Positions 9,356 to 15,406 of a stretch of 61,466 nucleotides of DNA are shown piece by piece (position 1 is the first letter of the stretch; every line of letters begins with the position of its first letter). Source of the stretch: Candidatus Saccharimonadales bacterium (GTDB lineage Bacteria; Patescibacteriota; Saccharimonadia; Saccharimonadales; Saccharimonadaceae); NCBI GenBank assembly GCA_030146045.1, contig JASLDG010000006.1:1-61466 (forward strand). Reading direction: 5' to 3'. The position numbers and the translations under genes are program-made. The notes under the pieces were generated by a model. It was not told the DNA's origin and searched no databases. It was given only the letters and a program-made list of their open reading frames with translations.

Positions 9356-9440
9356 CTAACTTCCGTAAGTATACCACAGATGTAAAAGTTTTTGTAGCAT
9401 CATGCATACCTATTGCAGTTATGCTATACTATCCCTAATT

Positions 9441-10463
9441 ATGGACATCAAAACATCAGTACCTCTTTCAACACTCACCACCATGCGCCTCGGTGGTCCT
9501 GCACGGTTTTTTGCCGAAGCCCATTCGGCCCAGCAAATGATTGCGCTCTGCAAAAATGCTCGCAAACTGAATCAAAAATTCGTGGTCATCGGCGGTGGCA
9601 GCAATCTGATTGTGCACGACGAAGGGTTTGATGGCCTCGTCATTCGCAATGCCATCCCCGGGTTCGAAGTTATCGAAGAGGATGACAACGCTGTTACCCT
9701 GCAAATCGGCGGCGGTGAACTGTGGGACTCAGTTGTCTCGCGCAGTGTCGGCCGCGGCTTGACTGGTATCGAAGCACTGTCTGGCATTCCTGGTACCGCC
9801 GGTGCAGCCCCAGTGCAGAATATCGGCGCCTACGGTCAGGAAATCGCCGATACACTCGTATCGCTCGATGCCTACGACACTATCGATGACCAGCTCGTAC
9901 GCTTGTCATGGGAAGATTGCGGCTTTGCGTACCGCCATAGCATCTTCCGCGATGATGCCTCGCGACGCTATGCTATCGTCAGCATTAGCCTCAAGCTCTA
10001 CAAACGCGCACCGCTACCGCCATTCTATGCAGCGGTACAAAAACACCTCGACGACAACGCCATCACCGAATTTACTCCTGCCATTATCCGCAGTGCCGTT
10101 CTCGAGATCCGCAGCAACAAGCTCCCCGACCCTGCCGTCTTGCCTAATGCGGGGTCGTTCTTCAAAAACGCCATCGTCGAAAAATGGCGCCGCGACGAGC
10201 TGCTTGAGCAATATAACTACATGACTTCGTACGAAATGGACGAAAACCATTACAAAATCCCCACTGGCTGGATGATTCAAGAGTCTGGTCTCAGCGGTGA
10301 AGTACTCCACGGCATTAAGGTACATGAGGGCAATAACCTGGTGCTTATCAACGAATCTGCTACTAGCTATGCTGACCTTGCGGCCGCACGCGAAGAAATC
10401 CAAAATGCCGTCCGTGATAAATTCCGCATCGAAATCGAGCAAGAACCGATAGAGTTGAGCTAG
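9441..10463 (+). CDS. murB: UDP-N-acetylenolpyruvoylglucosamine reductase
   Basis: MDIKTSVPLSTLTTMRLGGPARFF...VIGGGSNLIV matches the MurB FAD-binding N-terminus. The ORF track starts at 9402; I prefer the internal ATG at 9441 by comparison with other MurB N-termini. Confidence 0.9.
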   Translation: MDIKTSVPLSTLTTMRLGGPARFFAEAHSAQQMIALCKNARKLNQKFVVIGGGSNLIVHDEGFDGLVIRNAIPGFEVIEEDDNAVTLQIGGGELWDSVVSRSVGRGLTGIEALSGIPGTAGAAPVQNIGAYGQEIADTLVSLDAYDTIDDQLVRLSWEDCGFAYRHSIFRDDASRRYAIVSISLKLYKRAPLPPFYAAVQKHLDDNAITEFTPAIIRSAVLEIRSNKLPDPAVLPNAGSFFKNAIVEKWRRDELLEQYNYMTSYEMDENHYKIPTGWMIQESGLSGEVLHGIKVHEGNNLVLINESATSYADLAAAREEIQNAVRDKFRIEIEQEPIELS

Positions 10464-12945: not shown

Positions 12946-13087
12946 CGCAGGGTACAAGCCGGATAAATACCGTTCATCAAAGATAGCGTTACACGCCTGT
13001 TATTTTTGCTTCTGGCGAAAAATAACAGGGTTGCACTTCGCTTGTACTATCTTTTCAGAAGGTATTCTATCCGGCTTGTACCCTGCG
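12946..13087. repeat. 142-nt extended imperfect palindrome (20-bp perfect outer arms) in the divergent glyA / HTH-murA intergenic region
   Basis: cgcagggtacaagccggata (12946-12965) is the exact reverse complement of 13068-13087. Further pairing: aatacc/ggtatt, aaagatag/ctatcttt. Inner stem cctgttattttt (12996-13007) pairs with aaaaataacagg (13018-13029). Confidence 0.85.
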
Positions 13088-13092
13088 TAATC

Positions 13093-13121
13093 TTGACAAT
13101 ATATCATAAATGATATAAAAT
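13093..13121 (+). promoter_or_regulatory. Candidate promoter of the HTH-murA gene
   Basis: TTGACA (13093-13098), 17-nt spacer, TAAAAT (13116-13121). This puts the TSS within a few nt of the ATG at 13128 (leaderless or very short leader), which conflicts with GGAG at 13122-13125. An alternative is the extended -10 TGaTATAAA at 13111-13119. Pattern only. Confidence 0.3.
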
Positions 13122-13127
13122 GGAGAT

Positions 13128-14657
13128 ATGGACTCAGATGACTACAAAGTGAAAATCGGCAACCTTATTCAGGAGAGCCGACTCCATCGTGGCTTTACTC
13201 AGGCACAACTTGCCGAAGCACTCGGCACCAGCCAAAGTGCTATCAACCGTATCGAAAAAGGCGGCCAAAACATTAGCCTCGAAATGATCGCACGCATCAG
13301 TGACGTACTTTCGCACGACATCATGACACTCAATCATAGTGGTAAGATTAACTTCCGCGTCAATGGCGGCAAAAAGCTCTCGGGTAACATTACCGTCAAA
13401 ACCAGCAAAAACGCGGCTGTTGCCCTACTGTGCGCGAGCCTCCTCAACAAAGGCAAAACCACCCTCCGCCGCGTGGCCCGCATCGAAGAAGTTAACCGCA
13501 TCATCGAAGTGCTCACCAGCATCGGCGTCAAAGTGCGCTGGTTGAACGAAAACAACGACCTCGAAATTATCCCGCCAGCACGCTTGCAGCTGGAAAACAT
13601 GGATATCGAAGCCGCTAAGCGAACTCGCACGGTTATTATGTTCCTGGGACCGCTGTTGCATCAGTATGAGGACTTCAAACTGCCTTTTGCCGGTGGCTGC
13701 AACTTGGGCAAGCGTACCGTTGAGCCGCACATGACTGGCCTGCGACCGTTTGGCCTTGATGTTGAGGCAACTACCGAGTACTACCATGCCATGGTACATC
13801 CACGTGCCGTCGAGCAGTCGATTCTACTAACCGAGCGTGGCGATACTGTCACAGAAAATGTCATCATGGCAGCGGCACTGTATAACGGCGTAACCGTTAT
13901 CCGTAACGCCAGCCCGAACTATATGGTACAAGACCTCTGTTTCTTTTTGCAGAAACTGGGCGTCAAAATTGACGGTATTGGTACAACTATTCTTAAAATC
14001 CATGGCGTGCCAGCAATCGACAAAGACGTTGAGTATTACCCAAGTGAAGACCCAATCGAAGCCATGAGCTTCATCGCCGCGGGCGTCGTCACTGATTCGG
14101 AGATCACTATCGAACGTGTCCCTATCGAATTTGTCGAGATTGAACTCGCAACGCTAAAGGAAATGGGGCTCCAGTTCGAACTGAGTGAGGAATACCCCGC
14201 GCGCAATAATCATACGCGCCTGGTTGATATCGCCCTCAAGCATTCCCGCATGACCGCAGCCAAAGACAAGCTCCATGCGTTGCCATTCCCTGGCATTAAC
14301 ATGGATAACCTGCCATTTATGGGCCTGATCGCGACTGCCGCTCGTGGTCGTACGCTCGTACACGACTGGTCATACGAAAACCGTGCGATTTACTTTACCG
14401 AACTCAGTAAATTGAATGCGCAAATCGAACTCCTTGATCCGCACCGTGTCTACATCACCGGTCCAACCAAGTGGAAAGTTGCCGACATTGTTGCACCACC
14501 TGCACTGCGTCCATCCGTAGTCGTACTACTTGCGATGCTGGCTGCGCCCGGTCATTCGATTCTCCGCGATGTTTATTCGATCAACCGTGGCTACGAAGAT
14601 TTTGCCAATCGCCTGAACTCACTCGGTGCCGATATCGAGACAATTCGAGAAATTTAA
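13128..14657 (+). CDS. murA: XRE-family HTH domain fused to UDP-N-acetylglucosamine 1-carboxyvinyltransferase (MurA/EPSP-synthase fold)
   Basis: 509 aa. aa ~8-65 (IGNLIQESRLHRGFTQAQLAEALGTSQSAINRIEKGGQNISLEMIARISDVL) form a Cro/C1-type HTH. From aa ~73, INFRVNGGKKLSGNITVKTSKNAAVALLCASLL... aligns with the MurA N-terminus. FAGGCNLGKRTVEPH matches the catalytic-Cys loop. Confidence 0.88.
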   Translation: MDSDDYKVKIGNLIQESRLHRGFTQAQLAEALGTSQSAINRIEKGGQNISLEMIARISDVLSHDIMTLNHSGKINFRVNGGKKLSGNITVKTSKNAAVALLCASLLNKGKTTLRRVARIEEVNRIIEVLTSIGVKVRWLNENNDLEIIPPARLQLENMDIEAAKRTRTVIMFLGPLLHQYEDFKLPFAGGCNLGKRTVEPHMTGLRPFGLDVEATTEYYHAMVHPRAVEQSILLTERGDTVTENVIMAAALYNGVTVIRNASPNYMVQDLCFFLQKLGVKIDGIGTTILKIHGVPAIDKDVEYYPSEDPIEAMSFIAAGVVTDSEITIERVPIEFVEIELATLKEMGLQFELSEEYPARNNHTRLVDIALKHSRMTAAKDKLHALPFPGINMDNLPFMGLIATAARGRTLVHDWSYENRAIYFTELSKLNAQIELLDPHRVYITGPTKWKVADIVAPPALRPSVVVLLAMLAAPGHSILRDVYSINRGYEDFANRLNSLGADIETIREI

Positions 14658-15300: not shown

Positions 15301-15406
15301 TGGTGCGGGCGGCGAGAATATGATATATATCATCGTCACGCCGAAGAAAGTTAAGAGGTAACTTTCTTCGGCAGCTCCTCGCTATCGAACTCGCATCAAT
15401 TTGCTT
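15301..15406 (-). pseudogene. tRNA-Gly 3'-half remnant interrupted by a 64-nt palindrome-rich insert
   Basis: 15301-15319 (tggtgcgggcggcgagaat) is identical to 15487-15505 of the intact tRNA-Gly. 15384-15397 (atcgaactcgcatc) matches the next 14 nt of that tRNA. No 5' acceptor strand (cgcccgc) is present. Confidence 0.5.

Follow-up and report, generated by a model that had tools for sequence, protein, structure and literature searches.

A gene in the DNA of a Candidatus Saccharimonadales bacterium probably encodes an enzyme of cell-wall synthesis that also represses its own transcription. The stretch analysed (NCBI GenBank assembly GCA_030146045.1, contig JASLDG010000006.1, positions 1 to 61,466 of the forward strand; hereafter the window) contains at 13128-14657 an open reading frame (ORF) that joins an XRE-type helix-turn-helix (HTH) domain to the N-terminus of MurA, the UDP-GlcNAc enolpyruvyl transferase. 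MurA is the first committed enzyme of peptidoglycan synthesis, serving as its gate, and fosfomycin targets it. The bifunctional protein is proposed to repress its own leaderless promoter through binding of the HTH to a palindrome, a case of negative autoregulation to which we assign a probability of about 0.75. According to this proposal, the protein would be an active MurA, the only one of the cell, making enolpyruvyl-UDP-GlcNAc for peptidoglycan. Its N-terminal XRE HTH would bind a palindrome of 7-4-7 form (two 7-nt half-sites separated by 4 nt) in the -35/-10 spacer of its own promoter, and a dimer joined by the MurA body would put two HTH heads on the two half-sites. The bound protein would then block RNA polymerase, and the concentration of MurA would limit its own synthesis. 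DNA binding, repression rather than activation, and dimerisation are parts of the scheme that we infer.

The window translation gives a single uninterrupted forward-strand ORF of 509 codons plus a stop (13128..14657), which includes both amino acid strings quoted in a preliminary description made from the sequence alone. That description proposed an XRE HTH fused to a full-length MurA with its catalytic cysteine, an architecture now borne out by Pfam, NCBIfam, alignment to sequences of solved structures, and conservation. The HTH domain covers residues 3-61 (13134..13310, forward strand), as delimited by Pfam HTH_3, an AlphaFold2 model and nearly invariant alignment columns; its helices are predicted at residues 3-20, 25-32, 36-43 and 51-61, with the recognition helix within TSQSAINRIE (residues 34-43). 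HTH_3 (PF01381) matches residues 14-61 with an E-value of 2e-13 and 50.6 bits (cutoff 23), and PF13560 is also matched (38.8 vs a cutoff of 27). Sequence matches of this domain to the PDB are weak and fall on small XRE-type HTH proteins, namely C.BclI, HipB and DBP48, while the NCBIfam model NF006015, which describes the BzdR regulator class, matches it at E 2.6e-6. Residues 62-73 (13311..13346, forward strand) form a predicted flexible linker, with pLDDT below 50 at residues 66-71, and are 30-40% identical to distant orthologues and 80% to one orthologue of the same family. The remainder, residues 74-509 (13347..14654, forward strand), is the MurA module, as defined by alignments and the AlphaFold2 model. 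EPSP_synthase (PF00275) matches it at residues 78-496 (E 1e-47), covering profile positions 1-417 of 417, and the MurA subfamily model NF006873 scores 340.3 bits, above its cutoff of 297. A phmmer search aligned the module to 32 MurA sequences of the PDB across residues 75-507, the best being 5u4h (E 4e-56), with 1uae at E 4e-45. The AlphaFold2 model, built from an input alignment of 48 sequences, has a mean pLDDT of 91.2 and a pTM of 0.82; the MurA fold begins at residue 74, and block means for the HTH are about 80-90 across residues 11-50 and lower at either end.

The catalytic equipment of the MurA module appears complete. In an L-INS-i alignment with E. coli MurA, to which the module is 29% identical, K94, N95, R167, C191, R196, D393, R419, R461 and R487 match K22, N23, R91, C115, R120, D305, R331, R371 and R397, respectively; the codon of the catalytic-loop Cys191 (E. 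coli Cys115) lies at 13698..13700 on the forward strand. The core catalytic residues are all retained in each Saccharibacteria and actinomycete member checked. The preliminary description had raised the question of a second, stand-alone murA in the genome; none was found, the fused gene giving the only PF00275 match in the assembly (925 kb, 53 contigs, 93% complete) and being its sole EPSP-synthase-family gene. A murB gene is present at window 9441-10463, 2.7 kb upstream of the fused gene. Because the catalytic residues are kept, no other EPSP-synthase-family gene is found and MurB is present, the fused protein is likely the working MurA of the cell, with predicted activity.

Upstream of the ORF lies a perfect palindrome, TATATCA-TAAA-TGATATA (13100..13117), a candidate operator for the HTH, whose 16-nt core ends 11 nt before the ATG. 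It occupies the spacer of a sigma-70-type promoter on the forward strand and overlaps the -10 element; this promoter (13093..13121) consists of TTGACA, 17 nt and TAAAAT, with 11/12 matches, and an alternative extended -10 reads TGATATAAA. Transcription is predicted to start at the ATG or within about 3 nt of it, giving a leaderless transcript. The palindrome is present at 30 loci of the same family, where the upstream DNA is otherwise unalignable, and across loci that range from 37% to 73% in GC content. It is kept in other families and orders with symmetric changes in the half-sites, e.g. TCG/CGA and TACCA/TGGTA, and actinomycete loci (GC about 70%) have the same 7-4-7 form as ATCTCA-N4-TGAGAT.

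The association of this site with the fusion was quantified with the core ATNTCA-N4-TGANAT (12 specified positions), scored within 80 nt upstream of start codons. With at most one mismatch, the core was found at 63 of 77 fused murA loci of Saccharibacteria (70 of 77 with at most two mismatches) and at all 57 actinomycete ones; at the same threshold it occurred at none of 30 murB promoters and at none of nine unfused-murA promoters, and in 0.5% of shuffled sequences. Its end sits a median of 11-12 nt ahead of the start codon, and in sister orders, where the fusion is patchy, the operator again accompanies it. At the level of genomes, the 18-nt pattern with at most one mismatch has at least one match in 98 of 101 genomes of the same family, while in orders that mostly have an unfused murA it stays near the level of a reversed-pattern control. 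The perfect actinomycete palindrome occurs once per chromosome in two Streptomyces (8.6 and 8.9 Mb), directly upstream of murA2. A search for covariation between recognition helix and operator bases (A/T vs C/G) singled out residues 23, 44 and 46 as distinguishing the two operator classes; each class corresponds to one of the two phyla, so that the difference is confounded with descent, and this line was set aside.

Position and expression data place the start codon ahead of the HTH. At almost every locus only about 6-8 nt separate the end of the -10 element from the ATG, and no conserved internal Met was seen in the alignment of relatives. The S. coelicolor orthologue SCO5998, which spans 6573186-6574715 (1530 nt, equal to the length of the window ORF), is listed as a leaderless transcript by differential RNA sequencing (dRNA-seq) (Jeong et al., 2016; PMC4895711, Supplementary Dataset 2). 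Its messenger therefore starts at the codon that opens the HTH, and the palindrome covers about -12 to -28 from the transcript start. A true start downstream of the HTH, which the preliminary description had named as a point on which the fusion could fail, is contradicted by these three lines. Each of seven RNA runs screened contained only 5-7% of the words, and none was used as expression evidence. The fusion is thus genuine, intact as a MurA by sequence, the sole MurA of the genome and, since the Streptomyces orthologue transcript is leaderless, translated from the HTH start. A TATAAT box 6-8 nt before the start codon was also seen at murB in the Saccharimonadales (murB loci of 30 genomes, L173-L202; also L002-L064), and because this geometry is common to murB and murA, most mRNAs of these genomes seem, as a rule, to be leaderless or nearly so.

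Selection on the DNA-binding domain bears on whether the HTH is in use. In Saccharibacteria (40 pairs) dN/dS is 0.035 for the HTH vs 0.026 for the MurA body, and in pairs of Actinomycetota it is 0.11 vs 0.22. The HTH codons in Saccharibacteria are constrained by purifying selection comparable to that on the enzyme. Almost no change is seen in the recognition helix, TSQSA-x-x-R-x-E-x-G-x-QN, even where overall identity falls to about 33%. These values bear on the view that the palindrome is read by another protein, or is a mere promoter feature, and that the HTH serves protein contacts, nucleoid localisation or nothing at all, as a relic. This view draws on the overlap of the right half-site with the extended -10 and on other XRE proteins encoded by these genomes (weak HTH matches elsewhere in sister genomes). 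It is nevertheless improbable, because the left half-site, which has no promoter role, is conserved as well as the right one in the sequence logo. In addition, the motif tracks the fusion across phyla, GC contents and patchy sister orders, is absent at murB and unfused murA, and is unique in the Streptomyces genomes, and a relic or contact surface would not need strong purifying selection and an almost invariant recognition helix. The suggestion of the preliminary description that the HTH had been recruited for protein-protein contacts likewise finds no support, the recognition helix being almost invariant and the predicted dimer interface lying in the MurA body.

A dimer is expected because the site is palindromic. 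When two copies of residues 1-500 were submitted to a complex predictor with a custom alignment, a symmetric homodimer through the MurA body was obtained with a score of 0.57, the best of three controls reaching 0.00. This mark was attained by 20 of 30 proteins solved as one-chain pairs, compared with 1 of 23 solved as single chains. Agreement between runs covers at least 88% of contacts, the partner pLDDT is at least 82, and the predicted interface comprises residues 199, 233-237, 259-263, 283-288, 337-345, 379-389, 412-414 and 437-439. The score may reflect memory of MurA crystal packing, and the prediction is to be read as a likeness rather than as binding.

Several observations weigh against self-repression by an active MurA. 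On the side of the enzyme, the equivalog model TIGR01072 scores 320.5 bits, below its cutoff of 392.7, and near the sugar-nucleotide site G-D-T stands in place of the canonical S162-V163-G164 and Pro in place of D369. On the side of the operator, the right half-site doubles as the extended -10 (TGnTATAAT), and part of its conservation is therefore promoter conservation. At seven of the 77 Saccharibacteria loci the 80 nt upstream lack a good site; at one of these a perfect site lies about 160 nt upstream. The palindrome could in principle be read by another XRE protein, and a site in the spacer could activate transcription, as it does for MerR-type regulators, but the spacer here already has the optimal length of 17 nt. 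Finally, the site is found at other places. The genome itself holds a second perfect copy, TATATCA-TGCA-TGATATA, at contig 3:36946-36963 (L065 1947-1964), between the end of a gene for a 542-aa membrane protein and an opposite-strand tRNA, with thrS following and no evident target gene, as well as about five one-mismatch copies before unrelated genes. Four genomes of three other families (G038:C1, L069 511-561; G227:C12, L067 1987-2037; G131:C6:42281-42330; G296:C39:1517-1567) have tandem copies 33 bp apart within a long 23S-5S spacer, 65-100 nt upstream of the 5S rRNA. These extra copies may constitute a small regulon of HTH-MurA, or another factor may use the motif.

The same copies raise the possibility, which we regard as rather unlikely, that HTH-MurA is a broader regulator acting at several promoters, in some lineages that of the 5S rRNA, and so ties the level or ligand state of a wall-precursor enzyme to growth functions, with self-repression as one output among others. 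Mirrored TATAnCA/TGnTATA pairs are indeed enriched at spacing 4 among the 570 TGnTATA sites of the genome, where three perfect and about five one-mismatch palindromes are found at this spacing and almost none at others; genomes of the same family have 1-7 matches each vs about 0.25 for a reversed control; and the tandem sites recur in four genomes. Against this, the genes downstream of the extra sites in the window's own genome share no common theme (an alpha/beta hydrolase plus four ORFs that match no Pfam family, none with a cell-wall link), the region upstream of its own 5S rRNA (contig 46) has no such site, murB promoters across the order are devoid of the palindrome, and the perfect site is unique to murA2 in Streptomyces. 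murB was also considered as a regulon member and rejected: a weak palindrome, TATTGCA-GTTA-TGCTATA (window 9411-9428), overlaps an extended -10 and lies 12 nt before the likely murB start (9441), and it is not conserved in the murB promoters of 29 other genomes of the order. In G227 (L067 117-1508) two LAGLIDADG-type ORFs (motif GFLDGDGSI) precede the 5S rRNA gene, presumably within the unassembled 23S region or its introns.

Other features of the DNA around the gene were recorded separately from the operator. Between glyA and the murA promoter lies a 142-nt imperfect palindrome (12946-13087) that is not conserved in the murA upstream regions of relatives. Its inner portion has further copies, 83-97% identical, on contigs 18, 44 and 45 of the genome, and the whole resembles a small dispersed palindromic element of the MITE/REP kind, unrelated to the operator. 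An Rfam scan of the intergenic region gave only a spurious miRNA-precursor match, far below the gathering score. At window 15320-15333, inside a tRNA-Gly fragment region, ATGATATATATCAT presents the operator half-sites in everted, overlapping order.

Distant relatives of the fused protein indicate which of its parts have been most persistent. An exhaustive search of representatives gave eight fused proteins at 33-43% identity (P0127, P0138, P0139, P0149, P0155, P0161, P0185 and P0198). In all but P0127 the recognition-helix pattern is almost unchanged, and these seven have lost the equivalents of C115, R120, R91 and other catalytic residues; R371 and R397 are further losses among the distant fused relatives. 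P0127 has kept its catalytic residues and has a degenerate HTH. The genes for P0138 and P0139 are both divergent from an intact 438-aa murA, in clusters that also include murB (at L168 only), ddl and one Mur ligase for P0138, and two Mur ligases for P0139. P0155 is encoded downstream of a gene whose C-terminal residues, judged by eye, resemble alanine racemase. In all three distant loci examined whose upstream DNA reaches an operon start (L168, L170 and L203; 33-38% identity), an ATATCA-N4-TGATAT palindrome lies by a TTGACA or TATAAT element. The unfused close relative examined, P0124 (L167), has no operator site. From these comparisons the HTH and its operator are the oldest and most constant pair, and the enzyme body has become repeatedly a non-catalytic, presumably ligand-binding, domain.

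The catalytically dead relatives also suggest how control might be exerted in the active forms. That the MurA body acts as a sensor there too may be proposed mainly because the dead relatives keep HTH and operator; and because they do so in cell-wall gene clusters, it may be speculated that the open or closed ligand state of MurA (UDP-GlcNAc, PEP, UDP-MurNAc) tunes DNA binding. An extreme version of this idea, that in the present genome the protein works mainly as a transcription factor, with the MurA-like body as its sensor rather than an enzyme, would agree with the losses in distant fused relatives that keep their HTH and with the TIGR01072 score. It is very improbable, given that the core catalytic residues are complete here and across the Saccharibacteria/actinomycete clade, that the genome has MurB and no other MurA candidate, that the MurA module shows a dN/dS of 0.026, and that the two dead relatives with a second EPSP-synthase gene at their loci, P0138 and P0139, adjoin an intact murA whereas the window gene does not. 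The preliminary description had considered that the fusion might couple wall-precursor flux to transcription. Its idea of an enzyme coupled to transcription is upheld as regards self-repression, by the conserved palindrome at its own promoter wherever the fusion occurs, while coupling to flux is a step that we infer.

A survey of MurA architectures, as the preliminary description had advised, showed the fusion to be widespread in the order, patchy in sister orders and present in Actinomycetota. It is found at full length in thousands of homologues. In a search of 301 genomes of the class, all 101 genomes of the window's family hold one full-length fusion, and so do nearly all of the approximately 70 genomes from the other families of the order (55-85% identity, from about query residue 1/8 to 508). 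Most other orders of the class give a far weaker match (E about 1e-30 to 1e-50); five of their genomes that were examined have an unfused MurA of 417-437 aa, only about 30% identical, and a few genomes of other orders carry the fusion instead of the unfused MurA. In three of these five unfused proteins, the three that were scored (L037 and L040 in a residue table, L038 in an alignment of the loop), Asp occupies the position of E. coli Cys115, a replacement of the fosfomycin-insensitive type. The fused MurA keeps Cys at the Cys191 position in all Saccharibacteria and actinomycete members checked. Two other fusions with MurA-like modules were noticed, P0179 (1204 aa), with the module at the C-terminal end (754-1198), and P0261 (1155 aa), with an N-terminal one (3-427).

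A scan of species-representative genomes returned 597 related loci. Beyond Saccharibacteria, the best 80 of these include many Actinomycetota (Streptomyces, Kitasatospora, Nonomuraea, Actinopolymorpha, Nostocoides, Longispora and Allokutzneria) at 64-68% identity over residues 3-509. A single 50%-identity cluster holds the whole set, and its representative, a Nonomuraea protein, bears at NCBI the names MurA or "helix-turn-helix domain-containing protein". On a complete Streptomyces chromosome the fused gene is divergent from an adjacent aconitase gene, and SCO5998 (MurA2) is known to adjoin SCO5999 (AcnA) (PMC12161575). As both this neighbourhood and the 1530-nt length agree with SCO5998, the actinomycete fused protein is the Streptomyces MurA2 (SCO5998, 509 aa). 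Further EPSP-synthase-family genes are present in three complete or near-complete actinomycete genomes, with a canonical MurA in both Streptomyces, and a partial 2.9-Mb Nostocoides metagenome-assembled genome has only one other match to the family. The murA2 gene was reported as a direct target of BldM-WhiI in sporulation (PMC4125116) and as SigB-dependent (PMC8346170), and its overexpression gave no exploration phenotype (PMC11005364). No mention of the HTH or of the palindrome of Streptomyces MurA2 was found in the searchable literature, nor was any description of an HTH-MurA fusion in Saccharibacteria, Patescibacteria or Streptomyces.

The history of the gene was examined by maximum likelihood, in a quick search on 95 rows of the MurA module with canonical MurA as the root. 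In the resulting tree the deepest branches are those of unfused near relatives and of the fused proteins from other orders; the families of the order come next. The actinomycete clade is monophyletic (SH-aLRT 99) and nested in a clade with the window's family (99). Forcing the Saccharibacteria together, a group named only after the tree was seen, costs 83.5 log-likelihood units (p-AU 0.0018, long pseudoenzyme rows removed). The most economical reading of this tree would be gene transfer from a Saccharibacteria lineage to Actinomycetota, the phylum of the known hosts; the last transfer step may have had the opposite direction, and differences in rate or in composition (GC 37-52% vs about 70%) may lie behind the pattern. 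A wider scheme combines this transfer with ligand control, and is put forward tentatively, as a possibility somewhat on the doubtful side. In it, MurA would be its own flux sensor: the large shift of the enzyme body from open to closed upon UDP-GlcNAc/PEP, or the feedback ligand UDP-MurNAc, would alter the fit of the tethered HTH pair in the dimer to its operator, so that demand sets transcription of murA, and in some lineages of the 5S rRNA or other promoters. Gene and operator would have passed together from Saccharibacteria to their actinomycete hosts and become there the sporulation-phase MurA2.

If self-repression by HTH-MurA is true, Saccharibacteria in their thousands, with few regulators and only one MurA each, would set the level of this enzyme by a feedback loop made of one protein, and Streptomyces MurA2, already named as a target gene in development, would prove to be a transcription factor that has gone unrecognised. 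Streptomyces are genetically tractable, and the idea is thus testable there. The family also provides a natural series with active enzyme-repressors at one end and catalytically dead sensor-regulators at the other, and the tree suggests that genes have moved between epibiotic Saccharibacteria and the Actinomycetota, the phylum to which their known hosts belong.

The architecture is not canonical, as the preliminary description had stated, yet it belongs to a large and old family of which Streptomyces MurA2 (SCO5998; sven5810 / vnz_28735 in S. venezuelae) is a member. MurA2 and the window protein both have 509 aa, are 64-66% identical over residues 3-509, fall in the same 50%-identity cluster, and share the recognition helix and a 7-4-7 palindrome at the same distance from a leaderless start. 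They differ in that MurA2 is a second MurA beside a canonical one, whereas the window protein is the sole MurA, and in one symmetric position of the operator, ATCTCA vs ATATCA here. E. coli MurA (PDB 1UAE; EC 2.5.1.7) shares the two-domain fold over its whole length and the catalytic residues, but has no DNA-binding domain. To our knowledge, MurA is controlled by proteolysis and by feedback inhibition, and a DNA-binding domain within the enzyme is not among its known controls.

Proteins of the enzyme-repressor kind are known from other pathways, with BzdR as a counterpart of the dead forms; on MurA, including MurA2, this kind was not found in the searchable literature. BirA, PutA and NadR are active metabolic enzymes with an N-terminal DNA-binding repressor of genes of their own pathway, and the targets of PutA and BirA include their own operons. 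They differ from HTH-MurA in their DNA-binding folds and enzymes, and their metabolite switch is established (biotinyl-AMP for BirA, proline and the FAD redox state for PutA), whereas for HTH-MurA such a switch is a supposition. BzdR of Azoarcus sp. CIB consists of an XRE HTH, a linker and an inactive shikimate-kinase-like domain that senses benzoyl-CoA. Its plan of XRE HTH, linker and enzyme-derived domain is that of HTH-MurA, and the dead HTH-MurA relatives fit the BzdR design, but the MurA module of the window looks active and the effector domain of BzdR is of a different fold family. Among phage repressors, Cro and cI of the 434 and P22 type also belong to the XRE family and bind a two-fold symmetric operator over the regulator's own promoter, and the lambda cI transcript from PRM is leaderless, a self-regulated leaderless transcript as proposed for HTH-MurA. 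The phage proteins are small dedicated regulators that dimerise via their own C-terminal parts; in HTH-MurA this task would fall to a 436-aa enzyme body.

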